DNA from: Shimia sp.
GTDB taxonomy: Bacteria > Pseudomonadota > Alphaproteobacteria > Rhodobacterales > Rhodobacteraceae
DNA: 64,000 nt
NCBI RefSeq assembly: GCF_049116215.1
Contig: NZ_JAGDZB010000001.1
Coordinates: 459,678-523,677, forward strand
Direction: 5' to 3'
Positions 45,026 through 60,765 of the stretch are shown piece after piece. A program made the translations under genes and the position numbers. Each line of letters begins with the position of its first letter. Position 1 is the first letter of the stretch. The notes under the pieces are model-generated. The model saw nothing but the letters and a program-made list of their open reading frames with translations, made no database searches and was not told the DNA's origin.

Positions 45026-45142
45026 AGTGCCAAATCTAGCATGTTCTCGTTTGATTCTACCACCAAGTTTGCAGAGATCCGCAGTCGCTTTTTGCCATCC
45101 CCGTGTCGCTCTTTCTCTGGACAGGGCACCACGGTCGCCGCA

Positions 45143-45158
45143 TAATTTGATCAAATTT
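45143..45158. promoter_or_regulatory. Palindromic operator TAATTTGATCAAATTT upstream of the aminotransferase
   Basis: Perfect 14-bp palindrome at 45144-45157; matches the copy at 59241 at 15 of 16 positions. Confidence 0.75.
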
Positions 45159-45201
45159 TTTGACCCGCAGGAATCACCCCTGCGCCCAAGGGAGCACAGC
45201 C

Positions 45202-46554
45202 ATGAAAGACGACAACTTCCTGACGGAAAACAACGCCCGCCACCTCTGGCATCCGATGGGCGCCCCCGCCGATGCGCACAGCACCCCGCCCAAGATCATC
45301 AAAGGTGCGGAAGGCGTGAACATCACCGACATCGACGGCCACTCTACCGTGGACGCCGTGGGCGGCTTGTGGTGCGTGAACCTCGGCTACTCCAACGACG
45401 TGGTGAAAGAGGCCATCTCCAAACAGCTTTATGATCTGCCGTATTACTCTGCTTTCGCGGGCACCTCGAACCCACCGGCCATCGAGGCTTCTTATGCGGT
45501 GCGCGAATTCTTCGCCGAGGACGGCATGTCCCGTGTGTTCTTCACCTCCGGTGGCTCAGACTCGGTGGAAACCGCCCTGCGTCTCTCCCGCCAGTACCAC
45601 CGTCTGCGCGGCGAGCCGACGCGCACCAAGTTCATCAGCCTCAAGAAAGGCTACCACGGCACCCACTTTGGCGGCGCATCCGTGAACGGCAACAACCGTT
45701 TCCGCATCAACTACGAACCGCTGCTGCCCGGCTGTTTCCACCTGCCGTCGCCCTACACCTACCGCAACCCGTTCAACGAAAGTGACTCGGCCCAGCTGGC
45801 GCAGACCATCGCCGCCGCCTTTGAGGACGAGATTGCGTTCCAGGATCCCAAAACCATCGCCGCTTTCATCATGGAGCCAATTCAAGGCGCGGGTGGTGTG
45901 ATCGTGCCAGACGCGAGCTTCATGAAGCTCATGCGCGAGATTTGTGACCGTCACGGTATCCTGATGATTTCTGACGAAGTCATCACCGGCTTTGGCCGCA
46001 CCGGCGATTGGTCCGGTGCGCGGCACTGGGGTGTGCAGCCTGACATGATGACCACCGCCAAGGGCATCACCTCCGGCTACTTCCCGGTTGGTGCTTGCAT
46101 GGTGGGCGACAAAGTCGCCGACGTATTTGAAAACGACCAAACCGGCGAAGCGGGCATCTTCCACGGCTACACCTACTCCGCCCATCCGGTTGGCTCCGCC
46201 GCCGTAATCGCCACTTTGGCAGAGACCACCCGTCTTGATCTCAAAACCAACGCCGCCGCCCGTGGCACGCAGCTGTTTGAAGGTGTGAAAAAGCTGGCTG
46301 AGAAATACGACATCATCGGCGACGTGCGGGGCGGCCACGGCCTGATGACCGGCATCGAGTTGGTCTCTGACGCCGCCGCCAAAACCCCGATGGACATGGC
46401 CACCATGAAGAAGATCCACGAGGCCACCTATCAGGCTGGCTCCATGGTACGCCTTGGCGCGCACAATGTGCTGATGTCTCCACCGCTGACCATTTCCGAG
46501 GGTGAGGTGAACACCATCCTCTCCGCTTTGGACACCGGTTTCGCCGCCGCCTAA
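45202..46554 (+). CDS. Class III (omega) PLP-dependent aminotransferase
   Basis: [47 protein letters not shown]. Confidence 0.95.
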
Positions 46555-46753
46555 AACCTCTGCGGCTCGGGGCTTATCGCTCCGGGCCGCTTACACCGCA
46601 GGCCCGTTAACCTAACGAGAACGTCAATTTTTGCACCTCCGCAAAACAGTCGCGATACCGACGTCATACCGACGTGCCATCCGGCCAAGCTAGCTGCGTT
46701 AACCTTTGAGCCGCGCCGTTATTTGCCGACAAGTTTTCCTGTAAGGGTTTTCT

Positions 46754-46771
46754 TATTCCAATTTTGGAATA
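46754..46771. promoter_or_regulatory. Palindrome TATTCCAA-TT-TTGGAATA (ATTC-N8-GAAT, SqrR/BigR-like box)
   Basis: Perfect 8-bp inverted repeat about 35 nt upstream of the SulP start. Confidence 0.6.
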
Positions 46772-46805
46772 TATAGAGCGCACCAGCGACTCTCATGAGG
46801 CCCCT

Positions 46806-48539
46806 ATGCCACAGCAGCTCAAGCGTTACTTCCCGATCTTAGATTGGGCAAAAACCTATGACCGTCAGATATTTGGCGCCGACCTCATGGCCGCCGTAAT
46901 CGTGACGATCATGCTGATCCCACAGTCCTTGGCCTACGCCCTGCTCGCCGGTCTACCACCCGAAGTGGGCCTGTATGCCTCCATCCTGCCGCTGGTTGCC
47001 TATGCCATCTTCGGCACCTCCCGCGTGCTCGCCGTCGGCCCCGTCGCCGTGGTCTCCCTCATGACCGCAGCCGCCCTCGGAAACCTCGCTTTGCAAGGCA
47101 CCACAGAGTACCTGATCGCGGCCATCACTCTGGCCTTCATGTCCGGCGTCATGCTCACGCTCATGGGCCTCTTACGCCTTGGATTCCTTGCAAATTTCCT
47201 GTCCCACCCGGTGATCGCAGGCTTCATCACCGCCTCCGGACTCCTGATCGCCACCAGCCAGTTGAAACACATCCTCGGCGTCACAGCCCACGGCCACACT
47301 TTGCCCGAATTACTCACCTCACTGGTGACCCATTTGCCGGACACCAACCTCTTCACAGCTACCCTCGGTGCGGCCGCATTGGCCTTCCTGTTCTGGACCC
47401 GCAAAGGCCTCAAACCGCTTCTGCTCAAACTGGGCGTCGGTCCCCGCCTCGCGGACGTCCTCACCAAAGCCGGCCCCGTCGCCGCCGTTGCCGCCACTAC
47501 GATTTCCGCATATGCCTTTGATCTTGAAGGGAAAGGCGTGGCCATTGTTGGCACCGTTCCAACCGGCCTGCCGCCACTTTCAGCCCCCAGTTTGTCTCCA
47601 GACTTGTGGTCCCAACTCTTCTTGGCCGCACTCCTGATCTCGATCATCGGTTTTGTCGAAAGCGTTTCCGTCGCCCAGACCCTCGCCGCCAAACGCCGCC
47701 AACGCATCGATCCCGACCAGGAACTCATCGGCCTCGGCACCTCTAACATTGCCTCAGCAATTTCAGGTGGTTACCCGGTCACCGGCGGCTTCTCTCGCTC
47801 TGTTGTGAACTTCGACGCAGGCGCACAAACCCCCGCCGCCGGCGCCTTCACCGCCGTCGGTATCGCGGGCGCCGCGCTCTTCCTGACCCCGCTGCTGTTC
47901 TTCCTGCCCAAGGCCACTCTCGCCGCCACCATCATCGTCGCCGTGCTCAGCCTCGTGGACCTCTCGATCCTGCGCCACGCATGGGGCTACTCCCGCGTTG
48001 ATTTTGCCGCCGTTGCAACCACCATCGCGCTCACTTTGGGCCTTGGCGTTGAGGTTGGTGTCAGCGCCGGTGTAATCCTCTCCATCGCGCTGCATCTCTA
48101 CAAAACCAGTCGTCCCCACGTGGCAGAAGTTGGCCTCGTACCTGGCACGCAGCACTTCCGTAACATCCTGCGTCATAAGGTTAAAACCTCATCACATCTG
48201 GTTACGCTGCGCATTGACGAAAGCCTATATTTCGCCAATGCACGCTTCCTAAAAGACTACGTCTATGACCGCGTAGTTTGCGACCAACCCATCACCGACG
48301 TCGTGCTCATGGCCTCGGCCGTCAACGAGATTGACATGAGCGCGCTGGAAAGCCTGGAGGCGATCAACAGCCGCCTCAAAGAGCTCAACATCCGCCTACA
48401 CCTCTCCGAAGTCAAAGGCCCCGTCATGGACCGCCTCAAGCGCAGCCATTTCCTCGATGACCTCAGCGGAGAGGTCTTCCTCGCACAATATGATGCCTGG
48501 AGCCGCCTCGCCGGCGACAACACCCAACAAGCGGCCTAA
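46806..48539 (+). CDS. SulP family anion transporter with STAS domain
   Basis: PQSLAYA, GLYAS, ELIGLG..N, GGFSRS, RIDESLYFANA. Confidence 0.95.
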   Translation: MPQQLKRYFPILDWAKTYDRQIFGADLMAAVIVTIMLIPQSLAYALLAGLPPEVGLYASILPLVAYAIFGTSRVLAVGPVAVVSLMTAAALGNLALQGTTEYLIAAITLAFMSGVMLTLMGLLRLGFLANFLSHPVIAGFITASGLLIATSQLKHILGVTAHGHTLPELLTSLVTHLPDTNLFTATLGAAALAFLFWTRKGLKPLLLKLGVGPRLADVLTKAGPVAAVAATTISAYAFDLEGKGVAIVGTVPTGLPPLSAPSLSPDLWSQLFLAALLISIIGFVESVSVAQTLAAKRRQRIDPDQELIGLGTSNIASAISGGYPVTGGFSRSVVNFDAGAQTPAAGAFTAVGIAGAALFLTPLLFFLPKATLAATIIVAVLSLVDLSILRHAWGYSRVDFAAVATTIALTLGLGVEVGVSAGVILSIALHLYKTSRPHVAEVGLVPGTQHFRNILRHKVKTSSHLVTLRIDESLYFANARFLKDYVYDRVVCDQPITDVVLMASAVNEIDMSALESLEAINSRLKELNIRLHLSEVKGPVMDRLKRSHFLDDLSGEVFLAQYDAWSRLAGDNTQQAA

Positions 48540-49462
48540 GCCGCTGGCGCCCCGCTGCGATGCCGGTGGGGTGCAAAACACGCTGCCAAAGCAAGAATAA
48601 TCCCCGACACCGTCGCGATCATACCGGCCGCGCTGACCGCATTGTCAAAGCCCAGCCACAATGGCCCGTAACCGGCAAAGACATAGCCAAGAGCCGCAGA
48701 AAGCACTGCAAAAACAACGCTCCAGGCAACTTGATGCTCCAACCGGTTGGTCATCAACCGCGCCGCCGCCGGCGGGCAAATGAACATCGCGATCACAATG
48801 ATCGACCCCACCGCATCAAACGCCGCCACCGCCGCCAAAGCCGCCACCATCACCAACGCCACACCCAAGCGGTTGGTCGCAATGCCCATGGCCTGCGCAA
48901 AACTCTCGTCGAACGTGGACAACACCAAAGGCCGCCAAAACAACCACAAAAACGCACAAACGCCAAACAACGCGACAACCACACGTCCCAACTCCGGCGG
49001 CAATCCAGCTAAGGCAACGGGATCAAGCAGGCTTTCCCAGCCGATCGCGTCCAGCCAGATCAAGCTCTCCAAATTGCCATACAGCGCGTGTTCCACATCC
49101 AGATGGACGGAAGACGTATCACTTTGTTCCAAAAGCAAAACACCGGCCGCAAACAATGTTGTAAAGGTCAGCCCCATTGCTGCGCCGGGTTCGATATTGC
49201 CCAGCCGCCGAATGGCTTCAATCATCACCACAGACACCAAAGCCGCCCCCGCCGCGCCCAGCATCATTGGCGCGGCTGCCACCACGCCGGTGATCAAAAA
49301 CGCCACTACAATGCCCGGCAACGCCACGTGGGAAATTGCATCCCCAATCAGCGCCTGCTTGCGCAGCACTAGGAAATTGCCCGGCAAAGCGCAGGCCACC
49401 GCCGCCAACACACCAATCAGCATGGGGGTTAGGGACAGTGGGACAAATTCCTCACCACTCAT
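48536..49462 (-). CDS. mntD: Mn/Zn/Fe ABC transporter permease (MntD/TroD-like)
   Basis: ALIGDAISHVALPG, FDAVGSI. Confidence 0.85.
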   Translation of the reverse strand: MSGEEFVPLSLTPMLIGVLAAVACALPGNFLVLRKQALIGDAISHVALPGIVVAFLITGVVAAAPMMLGAAGAALVSVVMIEAIRRLGNIEPGAAMGLTFTTLFAAGVLLLEQSDTSSVHLDVEHALYGNLESLIWLDAIGWESLLDPVALAGLPPELGRVVVALFGVCAFLWLFWRPLVLSTFDESFAQAMGIATNRLGVALVMVAALAAVAAFDAVGSIIVIAMFICPPAAARLMTNRLEHQVAWSVVFAVLSAALGYVFAGYGPLWLGFDNAVSAAGMIATVSGIILALAACFAPHRHRSGAPAA

Positions 49463-50664
49463 GATGCCACCCCCTGTGGTCCGCCAATACGTTGATCTAT
49501 CTCCGAAATCTGGTCTCCGGTCAGCACGGTCTCGATATCGCGCAATCCGTCATACAACGCGGCTGCGCTCTCAAATGCCTGATCTGCCCGTACCAACTCC
49601 CAGCGCTTCTCGTCACGCAAAGCCTTGGCTGCACGCGCCCGCCCATCTTCGGTAGGTACGCCATCCGCATGCGCCAATCCGGCCCGCTTCAGCAAGCGTA
49701 CCGTGAAGGCTTCATAAATCGGCTGCCCTTGTGCCAGCGCCAACAAACCTTGGCGCATATGCACCCGTCGTTGAAACCGCACGTGCCGCAAATACACCGC
49801 CAGCACACCCCGATTGGGCGCCAACAACAGCGACAACACAAACAGCGCAAAGCTCGACAAAACAATGATTGGCCCGGTTGGCATCGCGGGGGCAAAAGCC
49901 GACAACGCCGCGCCAATCCAAGCGGCCAAGCCACCACAAAGCCCTGAAATCAAAACCATATGGTCAGTGCGCTCGGTCCAAAACCGGGCGGTGACAGGCG
50001 GAATGATCAACATCGCGACAATCAGGATCAGCCCGACAACTTTCAGGCCAATCACCGTGACCGCCAGCGCCAGCGCCATAATGGCAAGATCCATGCGCCC
50101 GACGTTCACACCTCGCGACGCCGCATATTCAGGATCAAAGGCCAACAAAGTCATTGGCCTGCGTAAGATCAACACCGCCAAAAGCGTCAAGGCGCCCCCA
50201 CCAGCAATCACCAACGCATCATTGAACAACATGCCCGCCGTGGAGCCCAAAAGGAAGCCTTCCAAACCAGCCGCACGTCCCGCGCCCATGGTTTGGATCA
50301 CGGTCAGCAACACAATGCCAAAGCCAAAGAACACTGACAGCACCGCGCCAATTGCCGCGTCTTCAGACAGTCGCGTAAACCGCGTGAGCCAACTCACACA
50401 CAACAAGCCGCTCCAAGAAGACACCGCTGCCCCAAAGAGCAAACCTGGCAAGGCGCGCCCGTCACCGCCCAGCAGCACCATCAGCATAAACGCAATGCCC
50501 ACACCCGGCAGAGTGGCATGGCTGATCGCGTCACTGACCAACGCCCGTTTGCGCAGATAGAGAAAGGTTCCGGTCACACCCGCCGCTATACCCAGCAAGG
50601 TCGCACCAATGGTCACCAGCGTGGCATTGTAGCCAAGCTGCAAAGTCAACGCATTCCAAAACAT
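49459..50664 (-). CDS. mntC: Mn/Zn/Fe ABC transporter permease (MntC/TroC-like) with C-terminal soluble extension
   Basis: ALVSDAISHATLPG, EDAAIG, VVGLIL; about 110 aa hydrophilic tail. Confidence 0.85.
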   Translation of the reverse strand: MFWNALTLQLGYNATLVTIGATLLGIAAGVTGTFLYLRKRALVSDAISHATLPGVGIAFMLMVLLGGDGRALPGLLFGAAVSSWSGLLCVSWLTRFTRLSEDAAIGAVLSVFFGFGIVLLTVIQTMGAGRAAGLEGFLLGSTAGMLFNDALVIAGGGALTLLAVLILRRPMTLLAFDPEYAASRGVNVGRMDLAIMALALAVTVIGLKVVGLILIVAMLIIPPVTARFWTERTDHMVLISGLCGGLAAWIGAALSAFAPAMPTGPIIVLSSFALFVLSLLLAPNRGVLAVYLRHVRFQRRVHMRQGLLALAQGQPIYEAFTVRLLKRAGLAHADGVPTEDGRARAAKALRDEKRWELVRADQAFESAAALYDGLRDIETVLTGDQISEIDQRIGGPQGVAS

Positions 50665-50667
50665 GGG

Positions 50668-51474
50668 TTAGCCCGCCGCCAGCTCCAGCTGGTCAATCTG
50701 GCCCGTCGCCAATCGTCCGCCGTAAGTTTGGTTCAAGTTTTCTGACGTGAATGCTTCATCCACCGTGCCTTCCGCCATCTTGCTTGTGTTGATCAGGAAC
50801 ACACGATCAAAATAGCTGCGCACGGTGGTCAGGTCATGGTGCACGGCCACGACCGTTTTGCCTTCAGAGCGCAAGGACTTCAGCACATCGATAATGGCTT
50901 TTTCCGTTGCCGCATCGACTCCGGCAAACGGCTCATCAAGCAGATACAAATCTGCTTCCTGTGCCAGTGCCCGCGCAAGGAACACGCGCTGCTGTTGACC
51001 ACCGGAAAGCTGGCCAATCTGACGATCGGCAAAATCGGTCATGCCCACCCGCTCCAAGCAAGCCCGTGCCTTTTCAATGTGCTGCGGACGAATGCGGCGC
51101 AGCAGACCCAGCTCACGATAGAGCCCCATCAGCACCACATCGATCACGCGGGTTGGAAAATCCCAGTCCACACTGGCGCGTTGCGGCACATAGGCAATGC
51201 GATGCCGCGCCGCTTTCAACGATTTGCCATAGACCAGAGCCTGACCAGCCAACGGCTGCACAATGCCCAAGGCGGCTTTGAGAAGCGTCGACTTACCTGC
51301 GCCGTTTGGCCCAATGATGGCTGTCATTGAGCCTTCAGCCACGGTCATATCAACAGAGAACACCACCGGCTTCTGCCCATAAGATACCGTCATGCCCCGG
51401 ATCGCCAAAGGGCTGTCTACCGGGATTTCTGCTGTGGGCGCTGCGCCCATATTTGCCGCCAGTTCTAGGCTCAT
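50668..51474 (-). CDS. mntB: Metal ABC transporter ATP-binding protein (MntB/TroB-like)
   Basis: GPNGAGKST, YVPQR..VDWDFP, LSGGQQQR, DEPF. Confidence 0.9.
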   Translation of the reverse strand: MSLELAANMGAAPTAEIPVDSPLAIRGMTVSYGQKPVVFSVDMTVAEGSMTAIIGPNGAGKSTLLKAALGIVQPLAGQALVYGKSLKAARHRIAYVPQRASVDWDFPTRVIDVVLMGLYRELGLLRRIRPQHIEKARACLERVGMTDFADRQIGQLSGGQQQRVFLARALAQEADLYLLDEPFAGVDAATEKAIIDVLKSLRSEGKTVVAVHHDLTTVRSYFDRVFLINTSKMAEGTVDEAFTSENLNQTYGGRLATGQIDQLELAAG

Positions 51475-51484
51475 GGTCTTTTCC

Positions 51485-52447
51485 TTACGATCCCGCCGAC
51501 AGGCGTCCAGTCATGCCGCGTTCCGGCACATCCCCGCCCAGCGCATCGCTGATCACGGTGATATTGTGGTCAATCATGCCTACATAAGTACCTTCATAGG
51601 TGCCATCCGGCCCCATCGCGTCCGAGAACAGCTCGCCACCAATCGCCACGTCATGGCCTTTGGCCGACGCGCCTTCAACCAACGCCCGCACCGTGCGGTC
51701 AGACACGGAGCTCTCCACAAACACCGCTTGAATGTCGCGCTCAATCAATGTGTCCACTAGGCTGCTGATCCGATTCAGCCCAGCCTCACTCTCGGTGGAA
51801 ATGCCCTGCACCCCCAAAACCGAGAAGCCATAAGCGGCCCCAAAATAGCCAAAGGCATCATGCGCGGTCAGCAGAATACGGGCCTCTTCCGGCACTGTGG
51901 TCAGGGATTTCTCCGCATAGTCGCTTAGATCAGACAACTCCGCCAGGAAGACCTCTGCATTGGCAACAAACTGCGCTTCGGCCTCCGGTTTCTTCTCAAT
52001 CAGCGCGTCACGCACACGCTCTGTCACAAACACCCAAAGGCGCGGATCCATCCAGACATGCGGGTCAAATTTGTCTGCATAGTCGTCATGCCCACGCAAC
52101 ACATCACGCGGCATGGTATCGGTCACAGCCACAACCGTGCCGCGCTTTTCCAGCTTGTGGAAGAAGTCTTCCATCTGCGCCTCAAGATAAAGCCCATGCC
52201 ACAACACCAAGTCGGCTTTGGTCAGCGCCACAATATCCGTGCGGGTCTGGCGATAGGCATGTGGATCCACACCCGGCCCCATAAGGCCCTTCACCTCAAC
52301 CGCATCGCCGCCAATGCGCCGCGCAGTGTCTGCAATCATGCCTGTGGTGGCCACAACCTGCAATTTCCCACCCGCAAAGGCGGGAGTTGCGCTGGCCAAA
52401 CTGGCCGCAGCTGTTGCCACAATAAAGTCTCGACGAGAGAATCGCAT
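51485..52447 (-). CDS. mntA: Metal ABC transporter substrate-binding protein (MntA/TroA-like)
   Basis: Tat-like RRDF signal, GVDPHAY, DPHVWMDP, HDAF.YF, DAMG. Confidence 0.9.
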   Translation of the reverse strand: MRFSRRDFIVATAAASLASATPAFAGGKLQVVATTGMIADTARRIGGDAVEVKGLMGPGVDPHAYRQTRTDIVALTKADLVLWHGLYLEAQMEDFFHKLEKRGTVVAVTDTMPRDVLRGHDDYADKFDPHVWMDPRLWVFVTERVRDALIEKKPEAEAQFVANAEVFLAELSDLSDYAEKSLTTVPEEARILLTAHDAFGYFGAAYGFSVLGVQGISTESEAGLNRISSLVDTLIERDIQAVFVESSVSDRTVRALVEGASAKGHDVAIGGELFSDAMGPDGTYEGTYVGMIDHNITVISDALGGDVPERGMTGRLSAGS

Positions 52448-52476
52448 GGATCACCTGTGCTGTTGCTCCACTTGAA

Positions 52477-52526
52477 TATGAGAACCATTCGCAGTAGTGT
52501 CAACGCAATTGCGACTTATTCTCATA
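52477..52526. promoter_or_regulatory. Two Fur/Mur-type 19-bp boxes upstream of mntA
   Basis: TATGAGAACCATTCGCAGT (52477) and ATTGCGACTTATTCTCATA (52508) in inverted orientation. Confidence 0.7.
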
Positions 52527-52532
52527 TTTTAG

Positions 52533-52548
52533 TTGACTAAATGGTCAA
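52533..52548. promoter_or_regulatory. Palindrome TTGAC-N6-GTCAA upstream of deoC
   Basis: TTGACTAAATGGTCAA; candidate operator for the deoC operon. Confidence 0.45.
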
Positions 52549-52636
52549 AAAAGTAGCTGAAGCGTCGTTCTGCGACTTGCCAAAGCCAGTATTTCTGAGG
52601 CATTTTGATCCCTGTTTTCCGCAACAGGATGGACCG

Positions 52637-53629
52637 ATGCAAACGCCCACCATTACCGCCGAAGGGCATCAACTGCCCACCGCGCTGGAACCGCGCAATC
52701 CTGGCATGGCGCTGGACCTTGATTGGGTTCGCACCGCGCAGGCCAACACTTCGGCCATCGAACGCCGTGCCAAGACCTTGCCGGGCCGCCGCTCGGTCAA
52801 GAAGGACTATCAGGCCGCATGGCTGTGTAAGGCAATCTCCTTGATCGACCTGACCACACTGTCCGGCGATGACAGCGAAGGCCGTGTGGAGCGTCTCTGT
52901 GCGAAAGCCAAGCAACCGGTACGCGCCGACATTCTGGAAGCGCTGGACATGACCGGCCTGACCACCGGCGCAGTCTGTGTCTACCACGACATGATCGAAA
53001 CCGCCGTGTCTTCGCTGAAAGGCAGCGGCATTCCTGTGGCGGCTGTGTCCACCGGCTTCCCGGCAGGTCTGTCGCCGTACCACCTGCGCATCGCCGAAAT
53101 TGGCGAAAGCGTAAAAGCGGGTGCGGAAGAAATCGACATCGTCATCACCCGCCGCCACGTACTGCAAGGCAACTGGCAGGCGCTCTATGATGAGATGAAA
53201 GAGATGCGCGAAGCCTGTGGCGATGCCCACGTCAAAGCCATTCTCGCCACTGGCGAACTGGGCACCCTGCGCAACGTCGCCCGCGCTTCACTTGTTTGCA
53301 TGATGGCCGGCGCCGACTTCATCAAAACCTCCACCGGTAAGGAGAGCGTCAACGCCACTTTGCCAGTGTCTCTGGTGATGATCCGTGCCATTCGCGACTA
53401 CTACGACCGCACCGGCTTCCGCGTGGGCTACAAACCGGCGGGTGGTATTTCCAAAGCCAAAGACTCTCTGGTGTATCTGTCACTGATCAAAGACGAACTT
53501 GGCGACCGCTGGCTGCAACCAGACCTGTTCCGCTTTGGCGCTTCCTCCCTTTTGGGCGACATCGAACGCCAGCTCGAGCATCACGTCACCGGCCAGTATT
53601 CGGCCAGCTACCGCCACGCGATGGCGTAA
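52637..53629 (+). CDS. deoC: Deoxyribose-phosphate aldolase
   Basis: IDLTTL, GAEEIDIV, ADFIKTSTGK, GYKPAGGI, RFGASSLL. Confidence 0.95.
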   Translation: MQTPTITAEGHQLPTALEPRNPGMALDLDWVRTAQANTSAIERRAKTLPGRRSVKKDYQAAWLCKAISLIDLTTLSGDDSEGRVERLCAKAKQPVRADILEALDMTGLTTGAVCVYHDMIETAVSSLKGSGIPVAAVSTGFPAGLSPYHLRIAEIGESVKAGAEEIDIVITRRHVLQGNWQALYDEMKEMREACGDAHVKAILATGELGTLRNVARASLVCMMAGADFIKTSTGKESVNATLPVSLVMIRAIRDYYDRTGFRVGYKPAGGISKAKDSLVYLSLIKDELGDRWLQPDLFRFGASSLLGDIERQLEHHVTGQYSASYRHAMA

Positions 53630-53639
53630 GGACAGAGCC

Positions 53640-53933
53640 GTGAGCGCCGCCCCAGACACCACAGCCCCTGCGCCGGATCAGTACCTTCTACGTATGAAGG
53701 TCTGGTCCCAACGGACCTGGGTCGCGCGCTGCGACGACCATCTGTCTGGCGCCACGCTGGAAGCCCGTCTTGCTGACTTTCTGCAAGAAGCTTTTGAACA
53801 CGCGCACACGCAGCCGGATCTACTCGACAAAACCACCGCACAAATTGCCGAGGCCGTTATGGCTGGCATTTTACACAGCGAAACAGTGCCAGCCGAAGAC
53901 CTTCAGGCCGCGCTTCACAAGATAACCTCGTAA
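53640..53933 (+). CDS. Small hypothetical protein inside the deoC operon
   Basis: GTG start 10 nt after the deoC stop; stop 11 nt before the ALDH start; 97 aa. Confidence 0.6.
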   Translation: MSAAPDTTAPAPDQYLLRMKVWSQRTWVARCDDHLSGATLEARLADFLQEAFEHAHTQPDLLDKTTAQIAEAVMAGILHSETVPAEDLQAALHKITS

Positions 53934-53944
53934 GGGGAAGACAA

Positions 53945-56290
53945 ATGACCGTTAAAGAGATTTTTGACACCATGGACTACGGCCCCGCCCCCGAAAGCGC
54001 CGCAGATGCGCTGGCCTGGATTGTCGATCAAGGCGCGGCCTTTGGCCATTTCATCGACGGCGACTGGACCACACCACGCAAGGACTTTCAGTCCAAGAAC
54101 CCGGCCAACGGCGAAACCCTTGCGGACCTGACTCAGGCGTCTCAAGACGAAGTCAACGCCGCCGTCAAAGCCGCGCGCAAAGCCCAAGTCAAATGGGATG
54201 GCCTCGGCGGCCACGGCCGTGCCAAGTACCTCTACGCCATCGCCCGCCTGCTGCAAAAACACAGCCGCCTGTTTGCGGTTCTGGAGACGCTCGACAACGG
54301 CAAACCGATCCGGGAAAGCCGCGACATCGACATTCCGCTGGTACAGCGCCACTTCTACTACCACGCTGGCATGGCGCAACTGATGGAAGCGGAACTGCCC
54401 AACGCCCAAGCGCTCGGTGTTTGCGGTCAGATCATCCCATGGAACTTCCCGCTGTTGATGCTGGCGTGGAAAGTTGCGCCTGCTTTGGCGATGGGCAACA
54501 CCGTGGTACTGAAACCCGCCGAATACACCTCCCTAACAGCCATGGCCTTTGCCGACATCTGTCAGCAAGCAGGCCTGCCAGCAGGTGTGGTCAACATTGT
54601 CACCGGTGACGGCGCGGTGGGCGAAATGATCACCGCGCACGAAGACATCAACAAGGTCGCCTTTACCGGTTCGACTGACGTTGGCAAGCGCATCCGCGAA
54701 GCCACCGCTGGCTCCGGCAAGTCGCTGACTTTGGAGTTGGGTGGCAAATCCCCATACATCGTCTTTGAAGACGCCGACATCGACTCCGCCATCGAAGGTC
54801 TGGTTGACGCCATCTGGTTTAACCAGGGGCAAGTCTGCTGCGCAGGCTCCCGCCTTCTGGTGCAGGAAGGCATTGCAGAGACGTTCTATCGCAAGCTCAA
54901 AACCCGCATGGACGGACTGCGTATCGGCAACCCGCTCGACAAATGCATCGACGTGGGTGCTGTTGTCGATCCAGTCCAGCTGCAAACCATCACCGACATG
55001 GTCGCAGGCAATACCGACGGCGAGACCTATCAAGCCCCCATCGACATGCCGGTCGAGGGCTGTTTCTACCCGCCAACCCTGATCACTGGCCTCGCGCCGT
55101 CGTCTAAGCTGATGCAGGAAGAGATCTTCGGGCCTGTGCTGGTCTCCACCACCTTCCGCACGCCTTCCGAAGCCGTCGCGCTGGCCAACAACACCCGTTA
55201 CGGTCTTGCGGCCACGCTCTGGACCGAAAACGTGAACCTCGCTCTGGACATCGCGCCCAAACTGGTTGCCGGCGTGGTCTGGGTCAACGCCACCAACCTG
55301 TTTGACGCGGCCGCCGGCTTTGGCGGTGTGCGTGAAAGCGGCTACGGCCGCGAAGGGGGCTGGGAAGGGCTATCCGCCTACACCAAACCCAAAGGCGCGC
55401 CCAAGGCGCTCAAGCCTGTCGAGGCTTTCACCGGCGACAAAGGCCCAAGTGACCCGCTGGACCGGACGCCCAAACTCTACGTCGGCGGCAAACAAGCCCG
55501 CCCGGATGGCGGTTACAGCCAGAACATCTATGGCAAAGACGGAACGTTGCTCGGCCAGACCCCGATCGCCAACCGCAAAGATGTGCGCAACGCCGTTGAG
55601 GCCGCTCACGCCGCCAAAGGCTGGTCCGGCACCACAGGCCACCTGCGCGCGCAAATCCTCTACTACATCGCGGAAAACCTCTCTGCCCGCAAAGACGAGT
55701 TTGCCACCCGCGTGAACCTTCTGACCGGCGGAAAGACCGGCGCCGCAGAGGTCGAAACCTCAATCCGCCGCCTCTTCACCTACGCTGCTTGGGCCGACAA
55801 ATATGATGGCCAGGCGCACGGTGTCCCGATCCGAGGCGTGGCCCTTGCGATGAAGGAGCCAGTGGGCGTGATTGGTGCGCTCTGTGCGGATGACGCCCCG
55901 CTTCTGGGTCTGATCTCCGCCATGGCGCCGGCTATTGCCATGGGCAACCGCGCCGTACTGGTCGCCTCGGAAGCCTTCCCTCTGGCCGCCACAGACTTCT
56001 ACCAGGTACTAGAAACCTCCGACGTTCCGGGCGGTGTGGTCAACATCCTCACCGGCGCCCACGCCGAACTGGCTGCCCCCTTGGCCAGCCACCTCGATGT
56101 GGATGCGGTGTGGTCGTTCTCCTCCTCCGATGTCTCTGCTGAGATCGAACACGCCAGCGCAGGCAACCTGAAAAGAACCTGGGTCAACAACGGTCTCACA
56201 CGGGACTGGATGGGCGCCGAAGGCGAAGGCCGTACCTTCCTGCAGGCCGCCACTGAAATCAAAAACATCTGGGTGCCCTACGGCGAATAA
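53945..56290 (+). CDS. Two-domain aldehyde dehydrogenase (ALDH16-like)
   Basis: PWNFP, FTGST, LELGGK, QVCCAGS, EEIFGP in the N-terminal ALDH, then a second Rossmann-like half without catalytic motifs. Confidence 0.92.
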   Translation: MTVKEIFDTMDYGPAPESAADALAWIVDQGAAFGHFIDGDWTTPRKDFQSKNPANGETLADLTQASQDEVNAAVKAARKAQVKWDGLGGHGRAKYLYAIARLLQKHSRLFAVLETLDNGKPIRESRDIDIPLVQRHFYYHAGMAQLMEAELPNAQALGVCGQIIPWNFPLLMLAWKVAPALAMGNTVVLKPAEYTSLTAMAFADICQQAGLPAGVVNIVTGDGAVGEMITAHEDINKVAFTGSTDVGKRIREATAGSGKSLTLELGGKSPYIVFEDADIDSAIEGLVDAIWFNQGQVCCAGSRLLVQEGIAETFYRKLKTRMDGLRIGNPLDKCIDVGAVVDPVQLQTITDMVAGNTDGETYQAPIDMPVEGCFYPPTLITGLAPSSKLMQEEIFGPVLVSTTFRTPSEAVALANNTRYGLAATLWTENVNLALDIAPKLVAGVVWVNATNLFDAAAGFGGVRESGYGREGGWEGLSAYTKPKGAPKALKPVEAFTGDKGPSDPLDRTPKLYVGGKQARPDGGYSQNIYGKDGTLLGQTPIANRKDVRNAVEAAHAAKGWSGTTGHLRAQILYYIAENLSARKDEFATRVNLLTGGKTGAAEVETSIRRLFTYAAWADKYDGQAHGVPIRGVALAMKEPVGVIGALCADDAPLLGLISAMAPAIAMGNRAVLVASEAFPLAATDFYQVLETSDVPGGVVNILTGAHAELAAPLASHLDVDAVWSFSSSDVSAEIEHASAGNLKRTWVNNGLTRDWMGAEGEGRTFLQAATEIKNIWVPYGE

Positions 56291-56303
56291 GCCAATCCAT
56301 CAC

Positions 56304-56345
56304 AAAAAAAGCGCCGATGATCCCTCATCGGCGCTTTTTCTTTTC
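56304..56345. terminator. Bidirectional Rho-independent terminator
   Basis: A-tract, AGCGCCGATGA / TCATCGGCGCT stem, T-tract between convergent genes. Confidence 0.9.
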
Positions 56346-56359
56346 GGGACATACAGTAT

Positions 56360-57949
56360 TTAGGCGGCGGCCCAGGCGGCATCATCACCATCGTCATCAA
56401 ACATCTCAACGTCACCGGTCTCAGGCGTCACTGCCGCGACGCGGAACCCGCCCAGTGCTGTCACCAAACGGTCGACCGCCATATCAAGGCTGGATGTCGC
56501 GGCAGAGGCCTCCTCCGCCCGCGCGGCATTGGCCTGAGTCTCGCTGCCAATGGTCTGCATGCTGCCACGGATCTTCTCAACCGATTGCGCTTGCTCAGAG
56601 GACACATCGGAGATTTCCGCCACATTGCCTGAGACTTGATTCACATCCCCCAAGATCGCCTCCAGCGCCTCGCCAACCTGCCGCACCAAGGCTACGCCGT
56701 TGGTTACATGTCCGTTGCTTTCCGAAATTAGCTTGTTGATATTCTGCGCGGCCTCGGCAGAGCGATGCGCCAGTTCACGCACCTCCGAAGCAACAATCGC
56801 AAAACCTGCACCAGCTTCACCCGCTCGGGCCGCTTCGACACCAGCATTCAACGCCAAAAGGTTGGTTTGGAACGCGATATCTTCGATCAGAGTCACAACG
56901 TGGTCAATCTGCGAAGAGGAGGCCTCAATTTCATCCATTGTACTGACGGCTTGCCGAACAACCTCCGCTCCGCTGCTTGTCATGCTGCGAGTGTTGTCAA
57001 ACCGTTCCTGAGTGGACTTTGCCTTTGCAACGGCCCCGTTCATCGCATCTGCAATCTCTTCCACAGCCGTTGTGACACCCTGCAAGGCATCGGCTTGCCG
57101 CTCTGAGCTGTGCGCCACACTATTGGAGACCTCTGACAGCTCGCGACTGTCAATTTCAATCTGACTGGAAACCGAGGTCACAGAGTTAATAATGCCGCTC
57201 AGCGACGTGACAGCGTCATTAAAGCTCTTCCTCAACGCCTCGTAGCTTTTATCAAACGGCTTATCGATTGCCGCGTCCAGATTGCCATCGGCAATACGAG
57301 TTAGACGTTCGTGCAACGTCGTGACAACATCTGCCTGGGCCTTTTCACGTGCCTCTATGCCGGCCTTCTCGAGCTGTAACGCATCCATGGTTTCGGAGAG
57401 CACGGCCTGCTCTTTGTTGCGTTCGTTCATCTGACGCAGCGTTGTCATGACTGAAGTCAGTAGAATGCCCGTTTCCGCGATCACAACAATTGCGTGCAGA
57501 ACAGTTCGGCCCACGTTCTCCATCAAATCAACTGAAGGATACACCATCGACGGCCAGAGGAAGGTCAATGCCAAGTGATGAACGGCCGTTACGCCTGCCC
57601 CCACCAACAAAGACGCCGGGCAAGTCATCAATGTCAGCATCGCCAACGCAGCAAAAAACACCATGTGTACATCCAATTGCCATGCATGACCTGCCATCGA
57701 CGCCAGGATCAGCGCAATCTGTCCGACCACGGCCACTGTCACACTCAAGCGAGCTGCCAGGTTTCCACCGAGCCGGAAGGCATAGAACGCCAATGCGGCA
57801 AAGGTGCCAGCTGAAGCGCCAATCATCACAAACTGCCCACTTCGCAGAAAGGCAATTGTAGCCGCAGTGGCCCCCAGAACGGCCGCCACAATAGCTAGAA
57901 CTTTCACGCCCGTTTGACGGGCTTTAGTCAATTTCAGATCTTCAATCAT
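56360..57949 (-). CDS. Methyl-accepting chemotaxis protein with multi-TM membrane-embedded sensor
   Basis: IEDIAFQTNLLALNAGVEAARAGEAGAGFAIVASEVR hairpin, HAMP-like segment, 5-6 N-terminal TM helices. Confidence 0.95.
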   Translation of the reverse strand: MIEDLKLTKARQTGVKVLAIVAAVLGATAATIAFLRSGQFVMIGASAGTFAALAFYAFRLGGNLAARLSVTVAVVGQIALILASMAGHAWQLDVHMVFFAALAMLTLMTCPASLLVGAGVTAVHHLALTFLWPSMVYPSVDLMENVGRTVLHAIVVIAETGILLTSVMTTLRQMNERNKEQAVLSETMDALQLEKAGIEAREKAQADVVTTLHERLTRIADGNLDAAIDKPFDKSYEALRKSFNDAVTSLSGIINSVTSVSSQIEIDSRELSEVSNSVAHSSERQADALQGVTTAVEEIADAMNGAVAKAKSTQERFDNTRSMTSSGAEVVRQAVSTMDEIEASSSQIDHVVTLIEDIAFQTNLLALNAGVEAARAGEAGAGFAIVASEVRELAHRSAEAAQNINKLISESNGHVTNGVALVRQVGEALEAILGDVNQVSGNVAEISDVSSEQAQSVEKIRGSMQTIGSETQANAARAEEASAATSSLDMAVDRLVTALGGFRVAAVTPETGDVEMFDDDGDDAAWAAA

Positions 57950-58257
57950 TTTGCATCACCACACAGCCAGGAGAGCGCTTCGCCGTCCAGAATGGCCCAG
58001 GCTCCGTTCCGTTTCAGTCTCTGTTCAAATCCATCGTCGTCTGACACTCCCATAACCGCCAATGGTGCACGCGCTACGCCCACCACCCAGCCGCCAGAGC
58101 CCTCAACCAGTTCTGTCAGGTCTGTCCCCGGCCGCGCGACAATCAAAACCGGCCCACCCGTTTTCACAGGTGCGCTGACAATTGCCAAAACCGGGGTCAC
58201 GGTCAGGCAAAAGACAACAGCGAGAATCGCCGGAAGATATTGCATGCGTTGGGTCAT
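57946..58257 (-). CDS. Small exported/membrane hypothetical protein coupled to the MCP
   Basis: Hydrophobic N-terminus, GAWAILD...WLCG C-terminus; stop overlaps the MCP ATG. Confidence 0.75.
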   Translation of the reverse strand: MTQRMQYLPAILAVVFCLTVTPVLAIVSAPVKTGGPVLIVARPGTDLTELVEGSGGWVVGVARAPLAVMGVSDDDGFEQRLKRNGAWAILDGEALSWLCGDAK

Positions 58258-58427
58258 CCTGCCCTTCTTCGGACAAAACAGTTTCCAGCCGCTTAATTTC
58301 GCAGGAGGAATTAGTTTGCGCGGCAAAATTACCAAGCGTCAGATCGCGCTCACCGGCCAAAAGAAAAGCGCGCCGGGAAACCCAGCGCGCTTTCAAAATG
58401 TCCAAACCGGTTATTAGTACCGGGTAC

Positions 58428-59081
58428 TTAACCTGGCAGCTTGGTGGTGCGCAGGTATGGGAAATGCGTGGTGAACTCACCGTATTTCGCCTTTGCATCC
58501 GCATCGCTCACCGCAACCGGAATCACCACATCGCCACCTGGGGTCCAGTTCGCAGGCGTAGCGACGTTCTCTTTTGCCGCAGTCTGCAAACCATCCAACG
58601 CGCGCAGCACCTCGGCAAAGTTGCGACCCACGTTCATCGGATAGGTCATCGACAGTTTCAGCTGCTTGTCCGGCCCAATGATGAACACAGAACGCACAGT
58701 TGCGCTGTCCGCAGGCGTACGACCATCCGGCAAATAGGCTTCTGCGGGCAGCATGTCGAAGGCTTTGGACACAACCAGACCGTCATCAGCAATGATCGGG
58801 AAACCCGCGCCGGTGCCTGCATAGGACTCGATGTCTTTCTTCCAGCCTTTGTGGTCTTCCACACCATCCACGGACACACCAATCACCTTTGTGCCGCGCG
58901 CCTGCCACTCATCAGCAAGCTGCGCCACGGCGCCAAACTCAGTGGTGCAAACCGGTGTAAAATCTTTGGGGTGAGAGAACAGAATGGCCCAGCTGTCGCC
59001 GATCCAGTCGTGAAAAGTAATCGTGCCCTGATCCGTCTCGGCGGTGAAATTTGGCACAACATCATTGATTCGCAAGCCCAT
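58428..59081 (-). CDS. 1-Cys peroxiredoxin (Prx6 family)
   Basis: FSHPKDFTPVCTTE, YPMNVGRNF, ATPANW. Confidence 0.95.
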   Translation of the reverse strand: MGLRINDVVPNFTAETDQGTITFHDWIGDSWAILFSHPKDFTPVCTTEFGAVAQLADEWQARGTKVIGVSVDGVEDHKGWKKDIESYAGTGAGFPIIADDGLVVSKAFDMLPAEAYLPDGRTPADSATVRSVFIIGPDKQLKLSMTYPMNVGRNFAEVLRALDGLQTAAKENVATPANWTPGGDVVIPVAVSDADAKAKYGEFTTHFPYLRTTKLPG

Positions 59082-59240
59082 GGGTATCTCCCTCGCTGTG
59101 GGTCGCACAGTCCGCCTTGCCAAACGAATGCGAGGCAATTCTCGCGGGTGGGGCGGTCTGTAAAAACGGTTTTTGTCGCAAAACGACTGTCCGCAGACTA
59201 CATCTGTCTTTTTTGAACGCCACCCCTTTACCGGAAGAAA

Positions 59241-59256
59241 TAATTTGATCAAATTA
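59241..59256. promoter_or_regulatory. Palindromic operator TAATTTGATCAAATTA upstream of the aldehyde dehydrogenase
   Basis: Perfect 16-bp palindrome; near-identical copy at 45143. Confidence 0.75.
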
Positions 59257-59328
59257 CTTGTGACCGCGCGTCGCCCCACTTGCGGCTCCCCGTTAAGCCG
59301 CGCAGACTGACGCCAAGATCGAGAGGGA

Positions 59329-60765
59329 GTGAACACCATGATCGAGAAACGCCAATTCTACATCAACGGCCAATGGGTCGACCCCGTTGCCGCCAATGAC
59401 CTGCCTGTCATTGACCCCGCCACCGAAGAAACCTGCGCCGTGATTTCGCTCGGCGATCAGGCCGACACCGACGCCGCAGTGGCTGCGGCCCGCGCCGCAT
59501 TCCCTGCCTGGGCAGACACGCCTTTGGAAGAGCGCGTGGCGAAGGTCAAAAAGCTGCGTGAAATTTACATGGCCCGCCGTGATGACATGGCTGAGGCCAT
59601 GCGCCTGGAAATGGGGGCGCCAACCGATCTGGCCAAAAACAACCAATGGGGCGCCGGTGTCTGGCATCTCGATGGCTTCCTCGAAGCTCTGGAAGACTTC
59701 GAATTTGAATATGCCATGGGCGCGGACCGCATGCGCAAAGAGCCCATTGGCGTCTGCGCCATGATCACCCCATGGAACTGGCCGATGAATCAGGTCTTCC
59801 TGAAGGCCATCCCAGCGCTGCTCGTCGGTTGCACCATGGTGTTAAAGCCATCTGAAATCGCCCCCCTCTCCTCCATTGTCTTCACCGAAATGATGGACGA
59901 AGCCGGCTTCCCCGCGGGCGTTTTCAACATGGTCAATGGTGACGGTGTGGGTGTCGGCTCCCAGCTCTCCGCACATCCTGATGTGGACATGGTGTCCTTC
60001 ACCGGCTCTACCCGCGCAGGCATCGCCATCTCCAAGGCTGCCGCTGACACCCTCAAACGTGTGAGCCTTGAGCTCGGCGGCAAAGGCGCCAACATTATCT
60101 TTGCCGACGCAGACGAGAAAGCCGTGAAGCGCGGCGTGATCCACTGCATGCAAAACTCTGGCCAATCCTGTAACGCGCCAACCCGTATGATGGTCGAAAG
60201 CAGCCGCTATGCCGAAGCTGTGGACCAAGCCAAAGCCGCAGCGGACGCAACCCAAGTTGGTGCCACCACAGAGTCCGGCCGTCACATCGGCCCTGTGGTG
60301 TCCGAGCTGCAGTTCAACAAGATCCAAGGTCTGATTGAGACCGGCATCAAAGAGGGCGCCACTTTGGTCTCTGGCGGCTTGGGCCGTCCGGAAGGCATGA
60401 ACAAAGGCTTCTTTGTGCGTCCAACCGTCTTTGCCGACGTGACCCCGGATATGACCATCTACCGCGAAGAAATCTTCGGTCCAGTGTTGGCAATCTCTCC
60501 GTTTGAGAGCGAAGAGCAAGCTGTGCAAATGGCCAATGACACGGTCTATGGCCTGACCAACTACATCCAGACACAGGACGACGACAAACGCCTGCGTGTG
60601 GCGCGTCAGGTCCGTTCTGGCATGGTGGAAACCAACGGCGTATCGCGTATCAACGGCTCGCCTTTTGGCGGCTACGGTCAGTCTGGCAACGGCCGCGAGG
60701 GCGGCACTTGGGGGCTGGAAGAGTTCTGCGAAACCAAATCCATCAGCGGCGTGCCCATGGCGTAA
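59329..60765 (+). CDS. Aldehyde dehydrogenase family protein
   Basis: ITPWNWP, KPSE, FTGST, LELGGK, GQSCNAP, EEIFGP; start GTG 59329 or ATG 59338. Confidence 0.95.
   Translation: MNTMIEKRQFYINGQWVDPVAANDLPVIDPATEETCAVISLGDQADTDAAVAAARAAFPAWADTPLEERVAKVKKLREIYMARRDDMAEAMRLEMGAPTDLAKNNQWGAGVWHLDGFLEALEDFEFEYAMGADRMRKEPIGVCAMITPWNWPMNQVFLKAIPALLVGCTMVLKPSEIAPLSSIVFTEMMDEAGFPAGVFNMVNGDGVGVGSQLSAHPDVDMVSFTGSTRAGIAISKAAADTLKRVSLELGGKGANIIFADADEKAVKRGVIHCMQNSGQSCNAPTRMMVESSRYAEAVDQAKAAADATQVGATTESGRHIGPVVSELQFNKIQGLIETGIKEGATLVSGGLGRPEGMNKGFFVRPTVFADVTPDMTIYREEIFGPVLAISPFESEEQAVQMANDTVYGLTNYIQTQDDDKRLRVARQVRSGMVETNGVSRINGSPFGGYGQSGNGREGGTWGLEEFCETKSISGVPMA

Follow-up and report, generated by a model that had tools for sequence, protein, structure and literature searches.

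Introduction

A 64-kb stretch of DNA from Shimia sp. (hereafter the window; G000:C1:459678-523677, in a genome of 4.28 Mb with 57% G+C) carries a class-III aminotransferase gene (AT1) and an aldehyde dehydrogenase gene (ALDH) that lie about 14 kb apart and are preceded by the same short palindrome. An earlier note on this DNA, made from the letters only, proposed that the two genes are co-regulated members of an undescribed amine-catabolic pathway under a distant regulator, and that the motif should reveal the transporter, the regulator, and the substrate. In this study, we asked which protein reads the palindrome and which genes it serves. Comparison of genomes suggests, with a probability that we put at about 0.8, that the palindrome is the operator of a 238-aa GntR/FCD regulator controlling the uptake and breakdown of polyamines (putrescine, spermidine, and agmatine) in Shimia and many marine Rhodobacteraceae.

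The palindrome in the window and in the genome

The two 16-mers reported in the earlier note (45143-45158 and 59241-59256) were found at these positions, and their shared core is a perfect 14-bp palindrome, AATTTGATCAAATT. The first site (operator 1, 45144..45157) lies 44 nt 5' of the ATG of AT1; its score of 34.7 bits on a position weight matrix (PWM) derived from the sites is the highest of the genome. The second (operator 2, 59242..59255; 33.4 bits) lies 82 nt 5' of the ATG of ALDH and 161 nt from the start of a divergent peroxiredoxin gene. Neither is assigned a strand. The halves of the palindrome are AATTTGA and TCAAATT, and the half-sites abut, overlapping into TTGATCAA, in all strong sites. 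An FNR/CRP box (TTGAT-N4-ATCAA), which the note had already set aside, was rejected: the half-site letters TTGAT and ATCAA are shared, but the 4-nt spacer is absent and the halves are extended to AATTTGA/TCAAATT.

Operators 1 and 2 are the only copies in the window, as the note had stated, even with up to two mismatches to AATTTGATCAAATT allowed (0.24 expected from shuffled sequences). The genome contains 5 exact copies, where a first-order Markov model predicts 0.03, and 10 copies with at most one mismatch, where it predicts 0.93; the reversed control word has 0 copies. Intergenic-like DNA, the roughly 22% of the genome left over by a crude gene model, holds 9 copies where the same model predicts 0.36. 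Eight PWM matches score 28.8-34.7 bits and the next best scores 24.1 bits. Second-tier matches (23 bits or less) adjoin unrelated genes (GGDEF-EAL, 7TMR-GGDEF, UDP-glucose dehydrogenase, TldD, and cox2) and were excluded from the regulon. The genome scan, which the note had proposed as a check, did not show the motif to be widespread in unrelated spacers. The DNA flanking the eight sites has nothing in common from one site to another; therefore, an origin of the palindrome as a repeat or mobile element was rejected.

All 24 sampled genomes of the genus contain 2-10 copies of the palindrome and none of the control word, and genomes from other families of the order contain essentially no copies. 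The pentamer TGACC, which the note had recorded within 10 nt after both motifs, is present at both places in this genome. It was rejected as a common element: in the AT1 promoter even 98%-identical relatives do not conserve it, and in the ALDH spacer it is part of another conserved block, described below.

Three side observations concern the distribution of the motif. One subclade of the genus (G016 and G017; loci L038, L064, and L066) has only 2 palindrome copies genome-wide; the operator is lost at both AT1 and ALDH, the agmatinase-like orthologue described below is absent, and the subclade illustrates how the regulon can shrink. Another copy, AATGTGATCAAATT, with one mismatch and 24.1 bits (G000:C5:316264-316277, about 5765-5778 of L016), has a second GntR/FCD gene (227 aa) on one side and an ATP-binding cassette (ABC) transporter with an NMT1-type binding protein on the other. 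This copy could reflect cross-regulation or a similar operator of a paralogous regulator. Weak matrix matches at G000:C6:226771 (21.5 bits) and G000:C3:449220 (18.8 bits) (L245 and L246) lie 75 and 103 nt 5' of a GGDEF-EAL gene and a 7TMR-DISM GGDEF gene, respectively. Links from polyamines to cyclic di-GMP exist in other bacteria, and these two matches are probably due to chance.

A GntR/FCD regulator accompanies the palindrome

The six strong sites outside the window each precede transport or catabolic genes or a regulator gene, and two of them bracket the regulator gene. No regulator adjoins AT1 or ALDH, in agreement with the earlier note; their neighbors are mutL, a SulP gene, the peroxiredoxin gene, and a DEAD helicase gene. 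The candidate regulator (238 aa; G000:C1:1010895-1011611) is encoded on the same contig, 506 kb from the window. It is a FadR-subfamily protein with a GntR winged helix (PF00392, 3.8e-13, residues 25-85), found in all of the best 120 homologues, and an all-helical FCD effector domain (PF07729, 1.2e-18, residues 95-214). Its best relatives in the PDB are FCD regulators, namely McbR (4P9F, 4e-21), 7U5Q, and 3C7J. None of the named NCBIfam equivalogs was reached (98 bits against a cut-off of 225 for PRK11414), the closest named relatives are from Shimia sagamensis (91%) and S. marina (79%), and the public names of the homologues are all generic. A regulator of the MocR/GabR type was rejected: the protein has 238 aa with FCD only and without the large aminotransferase-like domain (fold type I, pyridoxal phosphate-dependent), and the repeat is inverted, not direct.

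Orthologues of the regulator (48-60% identity, clearly set apart from a paralogue tier at 42% or less) occur in 53 of the 120 sampled Rhodobacteraceae genera. All 29 regulator loci inspected in other genera have the palindrome beside the gene, 25 of them on both sides. Among the best 80 named loci, which come from dozens of Rhodobacteraceae genera and include Roseovarius, Ruegeria, Tritonibacter, Sulfitobacter, Pseudorhodobacter, Rhodobacter, and Celeribacter but not R. pomeroyi, the palindrome is present in the regulator promoter at 71, just downstream of the gene at 75, and at both places at 69. The layout is also conserved in these loci: gntR is followed on the same strand by an orthologue of a second, SpuC-like aminotransferase gene (AT2) at 76/80, and it is divergent from a PotF-like importer at 62/80. 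When one genome was taken per genus, the 53 genera with the regulator had a mean of 2.8 palindrome copies (at least one in 48), and the 67 genera without it had a mean of 0.6 (at least one in 17). A rank test on these counts gives too high a significance, since the genomes are still related to one another.

Some of the evidence weighs against assigning the palindrome to this protein. Because the regulator gene, the importer, and the SpuC-like gene are physically linked, co-occurrence cannot separate a protein that binds the motif from a motif that belongs to the cluster. Several copies are present in a few genomes without a regulator orthologue (9 in G117, 5 in G081, and 5 in G095; 2-9 copies in such genomes). 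The operator, an A/T-rich perfect palindrome with the core TTGA/TCAA, lacks the GT...AC of the TKGT/ACMA boxes (NyGTM-N0-1-KACNy) typical of the FadR subfamily (PMC4494728). Each of these points would fit binding by another transcription factor, such as a global nitrogen or carbon regulator, with the GntR/FCD gene being merely one regulon member. We regard this as quite improbable. The GntR/FCD protein is the sole DNA-binding protein in the conserved module, and the site in its own promoter at 71 of the 80 loci fits autoregulation. An A/T-rich perfect 14-bp inverted repeat fits a winged-helix dimer of the FadR subfamily, and non-canonical cores are known in the GntR family, for example that of BioR (PMC4494728). 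The copies per genome fall from 2.8 to 0.6 where the regulator is missing. Binding of the palindrome by the GntR/FCD protein is thus the reading that we prefer.

FadR-subfamily proteins typically bind carboxylic acids (PMC4494728), and the FCD domain of the Shimia regulator has Arg, His, and Asp residues that are invariant across genera. Therefore, a breakdown product such as 4-aminobutyrate (GABA) is at least as likely to be the effector as a free polyamine.

Genes behind the other strong sites and the substrate class

The remaining strong sites point to polyamines as the substrate class. One lies in the divergent spacer between the regulator gene and an operon for a PotF-like binding protein, an ATPase, and a permease. 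Another precedes AT2, a class-III aminotransferase gene that is followed by genes for an ABC ATPase, a binding protein, and a permease; thus PotF-like SBP_bac_8, ABC_tran/TOBE_2, and permease genes flank the regulator on both sides. A third precedes an agmatinase-family ureohydrolase gene (NCBIfam agmatinase subfamily, 448 bits against a cut-off of 302), whose orthologues have the palindrome in 25 of 25 cases, at -28 to -44. Behind a fourth lies an operon for a GATase (PuuD-like), a glutamine synthetase (GS)-like protein (PuuA-like), a flavin adenine dinucleotide (FAD) oxidase (PuuB-like), and a DegT-aminotransferase, and a second GS-like (PuuA-like) gene has a strong site of its own. The last precedes an aldose-1-epimerase-like gene followed by an aldehyde dehydrogenase gene whose product resembles succinate-semialdehyde dehydrogenase (SSADH; 636 bits on this model, cut-off 646). 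This pair has the palindrome in 9 of 20 orthologues, all from close relatives. The aldose-1-epimerase-family gene (G000:C1:35939-36934, minus strand; L011:4937-5935; Pfam 5e-76), the first gene behind this strong operator, does not fit readily into an amine pathway.

AT2 shares about 94% identity with the transaminase SMTA of Shimia marina (8WQJ); this match and the relatives of the regulator named above place the genome in Shimia. AT2 scores 842 bits against 3HMU of R. pomeroyi, which we take to be SPO3471, and 610-620 bits against structures whose depositors named them putrescine aminotransferase or polyamine:pyruvate transaminase. The predicted regulon therefore includes both an importer for polyamines and a homologue of putrescine/diamine transaminases.

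Work on R. pomeroyi DSS-3 bears on both. The function of its potFGHI genes (SPO3466-SPO3469), predicted at first from expression data, was verified with mutants, which lose growth on cadaverine, putrescine, and spermidine (PMC10130141). SPO3471 is a diamine-active transaminase that has been used on cadaverine and hexanediamine precursors (PMC11075332; bioRxiv 10.1101/2022.11.15.516597), and the product of SPO3472 is annotated as an ABC ATPase for polyamines (PMC9870897). The locus-tag order matches the Shimia locus, and SPO3470 presumably occupies the position expected for the regulator orthologue.

The regulon might instead answer to another class of amines, such as GABA, beta-alanine, another omega-amino acid, or guanidino compounds, with AT1 and ALDH placed in that route. 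The two window enzymes lack an assignment at the equivalog level (NCBIfam, PDB), the nearest structures of AT1 are promiscuous omega-transaminases and GABA transaminases, and the agmatinase family also includes guanidinobutyrases. Moreover, with carboxylic acids as the typical effectors of the subfamily, GABA fits better than putrescine. We nevertheless consider this unlikely. The core that is invariant across genera consists of a PotF-type importer and a SpuC-like diamine transaminase, the counterpart of the importer in R. pomeroyi is verified for cadaverine, putrescine, and spermidine, and PuuA/PuuD/PuuB-like genes are among the members. Even if a carboxylate such as GABA were the effector, it would come from the breakdown of polyamines.

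The proposal of a transporter, a regulator, and a substrate within reach of the motif therefore fared well: two PotF-type ABC systems, the GntR/FCD gene, and a predicted polyamine/agmatine class emerged. The central idea of the earlier note, co-regulation of the two genes by a distant regulator, holds on comparative genomics, with an operator common to six other promoters and a likely regulator 506 kb away. The pathway itself is not an undescribed one, as the genes correspond to the known transaminase and gamma-glutamylation routes of polyamine catabolism.

The operator at AT1

AT1 (45202..46554, plus strand) encodes a class-III (omega-type) aminotransferase of 450 aa (Pfam Aminotran_3, 2e-92; NCBIfam PRK07481 subfamily, 698 bits against a cut-off of 575). 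Its closest solved structures are the omega-transaminases 5LH9 and 6S54, followed by 4-aminobutyrate transaminases, and the enzyme is a candidate GABA/omega-amino-acid:pyruvate transaminase. The distance of 43 nt from the 16-mer to the ATG (45202), as given in the note, is correct.

A sigma-70-like promoter (45118..45146, plus strand) was found in front of AT1, with a -35 element TGGACA (45118-45123), a 17-nt spacer, and a -10 element CATAAT (45141-45146). It has 10/12 matches in the promoter scan, where 0.1 such promoters were expected, and the final 3 nt of the -10 element are the first 3 nt of operator 1. The block CTGGACAG in this promoter, followed at 16-17 nt by a hexamer CATAAT, CAATAT, or TAGGAT, is conserved, and the neighboring DNA has diverged. 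A hairpin in the AT1 leader (GCAGG-N7-CCTGC, 45167-45183), between the operator and the ribosome-binding site, is kept in the closest relatives only.

Footprinting upstream of AT1 orthologues, a check named in the note, showed that the motif is conserved. The palindrome is kept in 21 of the 22 orthologues in the genus (at least 81% identity) while the rest of the spacer diverges. In other genera (78-84% identity), it is present in 8 of 11, 30-39 nt 5' of the ATG and fused to a TAGGAT-like -10 element; therefore, the operator lies over the -10 element and start site of the AT1 promoter. The regulator is present in all eight of these other-genus genomes.

Both window sites lie in divergent spacers, and they might serve mutL (43118..45025, minus strand; Pfam MutL_C/DNA_mis_repair) and the peroxiredoxin gene rather than AT1 and ALDH, a possibility that the note had raised. 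Within the genus, the mutL-AT1 and peroxiredoxin-ALDH pairings are nearly invariant and therefore uninformative on the choice of target. The other genera resolved the choice for AT1 and did so only partly for ALDH. In other genera, the AT1 orthologue never adjoins mutL, and the motif moves with the gene; mutL is therefore ruled out as the target. The overlap of the palindrome with an AT1-directed promoter and the six other genome sites, none of which has a neighbor of the mutL or peroxiredoxin type, likewise argue for the catabolic genes. Control of the divergent neighbors is, with the evidence on ALDH given below, very improbable.

The overlap of the palindrome with the conserved -10 element at AT1 suggests repression. 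Similar geometry was seen at other sites: the palindrome is fused to the -10 element at the second GS-like gene, lies between -35 (TTGACT) and -10 (TATTTT) at AT2, and contains the -35 element (TTGATC), 17 nt 5' of CAATAT, at gntR, conservation backing this geometry in the AT1 case only. Promoter overlap at these four genes implies repression by promoter occlusion.

The operator at ALDH

ALDH (59338..60765, plus strand) encodes an NAD(P)-dependent aldehyde dehydrogenase of 475 aa (Pfam Aldedh, PF00171, 3e-149). The 72 nt between motif and start that the note gave apply to the GTG at 59329. The ATG at 59338 is the likelier start, because it is preceded by GGGAG and all orthologue alignments begin there, and the distance is then 81 nt. 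The enzyme is a candidate aminoaldehyde (4-aminobutanal) dehydrogenase, and its closest structure is an aldehyde dehydrogenase that itself has no specific name (3I44).

In the genus, the palindrome is retained at -92 to -108 in 21 of the 29 ALDH spacers and has been lost from the other eight. In other genera, only 2 of 29 have it, both in genomes with the regulator; therefore, ALDH is a lineage-specific recruit, and the conservation that the note had anticipated upstream of orthologues extends across most of Shimia but hardly beyond. The divergent 1-Cys peroxiredoxin gene (prx; 58428..59081, minus strand; Pfam AhpC-TSA/1-cysPrx_C) is probably not a target of operator 2. In G015, the palindrome is kept before ALDH without prx as a neighbor, and the divergent prx-ALDH pair (58428-60765 in the window; loci L216-L244) is conserved in 25 of 29 other genera, only 2 of which have the palindrome. 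As no clear ALDH-directed promoter was seen, an effect on prx in Shimia may be allowed for. ALDH probably had an older role tied to prx, perhaps in aldehyde or oxidative stress, before its recruitment to the polyamine regulon in Shimia.

Two features of ALDH fit a polyamine regulon poorly. No substrate-specific NCBIfam model reached its cut-off (best scores: BADH, 398/669; aminobutyraldehyde dehydrogenase, 378/615; SSADH, 334/646), so that membership extends to the general family PF00171 only, and the family-wide pairing with prx hints at another ancestral role. The promoter scan detected no sigma-70-like promoter in the ALDH spacer. A second conserved block, GTGACCGCGCGTC (59260..59272, plus strand), lies directly 3' of operator 2, outside the palindrome, and is kept in the genus, including genomes without the palindrome. 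Related blocks (CTTGCx-N14-19-GTGACAGAGTGCC) occur in 7 of 21 ALDH spacers of other genera. A different sigma factor might use this block as its promoter, or a second regulator might bind there.

The regulator might activate transcription, with or without also acting as a repressor, most plausibly at the ALDH promoter. The ALDH operator lies 82 nt from the ATG with no recognizable promoter overlapping it, and in G134, from another genus, a possible promoter (a CTTGCC...GTGACAGAGTG block) lies downstream of the palindrome. The geometry at AT1, the second PuuA-like gene, AT2, and gntR is of the repression type, and most catabolic regulators of the FadR subfamily are repressors. Activation is accordingly a doubtful alternative, and repression remains the sign that we favor for the regulon.

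Proposed model

The sites, their conservation, and their proximity to the regulator gene and to polyamine genes are observed; binding by this protein, the direction of control, the effector, and the substrates of the enzymes are inferred. In the proposed model, the regulator, as a dimer, would occupy the 14-bp inverted repeat in about eight promoters. Its targets would be its own promoter; the divergent PotF/G/H/I-type importer; the SpuC-like diamine:pyruvate aminotransferase with the second ABC importer; the agmatinase-like gene; the PuuD-PuuA-PuuB-like gamma-glutamylation operon; the second PuuA-like gene; the epimerase-like and SSADH pair; AT1; and ALDH. At AT1, where the operator covers the -10 element and the start site, the bound regulator would block RNA polymerase. 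Repression would be lifted when a polyamine-derived effector binds the FCD domain, and the site in the gntR promoter would provide negative autoregulation.

Polyamines would enter through the two PotF-type systems, and agmatine would be converted to putrescine by the agmatinase-like enzyme. Putrescine would then be converted to 4-aminobutanal by AT2, 4-aminobutanal to GABA by the window ALDH, GABA to succinate semialdehyde by AT1, and succinate semialdehyde to succinate by the SSADH-like enzyme. The gamma-glutamyl branch would run in parallel with this transaminase route. The note had treated AT1 and ALDH as the standard two-step pair that turns an amine into an acid. They need not be consecutive in that sense: a second aminotransferase and a second aldehyde dehydrogenase are also in the regulon, and therefore AT1 and ALDH more likely act at steps 2 and 3 of a four-step route.

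Novelty and significance

The regulon seems to be conventional, well supported, and undescribed so far. Searches of the literature for a GntR polyamine regulator in Rhodobacterales, or for potFGHI together with GntR, returned nothing relevant. No mention of SPO3470 and no regulator for the genetically verified importer of R. pomeroyi were found in the literature searched, and the motif string matched insect barcodes and unrelated entries only. The Shimia motif and regulator are absent from a large survey of GntR motifs and its supplements. On balance, we favor a broader view, held less firmly than the assignment of the operator itself, in which this uncharacterized member of the FadR subfamily, present in about half of the Rhodobacteraceae genera, serves the marine roseobacter group as its master regulator of polyamine genes. 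Its non-canonical 14-bp operator would define a core regulon of the importer, the SpuC-like transaminase, and the regulator itself, with a lineage-variable periphery that includes AT1 and, in Shimia, the prx-linked ALDH.

Polyamines are a significant labile source of nitrogen and carbon released by phytoplankton, and roseobacters are major consumers. If the broader view is true, this would be the first polyamine regulator of the GntR family, and the operator would be a marker, readable from sequence, of polyamine-responsive genes in marine metatranscriptomes. With a regulator assigned to the operator, such genes could be predicted from sequence across dozens of genera. The operator also flags AT1 and ALDH as candidate enzymes for the poorly assigned middle steps, and it may be usable as a part of a biosensor for polyamines or GABA. 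Turnover is seen clearly in this regulon, which has a core that is stable across the family and has recruited ALDH and the epimerase-SSADH pair in sub-lineages only. The general understanding of bacterial regulation would be unchanged, since the protein appears to be an ordinary local repressor with a scattered regulon.

Comparison with known systems

The E. coli PuuR/puu divergon is similar in that a dedicated, autoregulated repressor controls putrescine import and catabolism by the gamma-glutamyl putrescine pathway (PuuA, GS-like; PuuD, GATase; PuuB, FAD oxidase) from sites that overlap promoters. PuuR is an XRE-type helix-turn-helix (HTH)/cupin protein with an asymmetric site unrelated to the Shimia palindrome. 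Distinct from PuuR, the Shimia regulator combines a GntR HTH with FCD, its putative operator is a perfect 14-bp palindrome, and its regulon occupies at least seven separate loci and not a single cluster. In the spuABCDEFGH/PauR system of P. aeruginosa, a SpuC-type putrescine:pyruvate transaminase is likewise linked to a PotF-type importer, and a gamma-glutamylation route operates alongside the transaminase route. The regulator family, the operator, and the gene order differ in Shimia: PauR is an XRE/cupin regulator, and no HTH_3/cupin protein of the PuuR/PauR type was found at any of the eight sites.

Members of the FadR subfamily (PdhR, LldR, and DgoR; CsiR/GabC of the E. coli csiD-gabDTP operon; McbR, 4P9F) share PF00392 and PF07729 and an A/T-rich inverted-repeat operator with the Shimia protein. 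Like them, the Shimia protein probably regulates its own gene and probably represses catabolic genes until a small acid releases it. The Shimia operator differs from theirs in its core, TTGA/TCAA with abutting half-sites instead of TKGT-N(0-3)-ACMA. To our knowledge, a polyamine regulon has not hitherto been assigned to this subfamily. SPO3466-SPO3472 of R. pomeroyi appears from its locus-tag order to be the orthologous module, with an importer, a presumed regulator, a transaminase, and a second importer.

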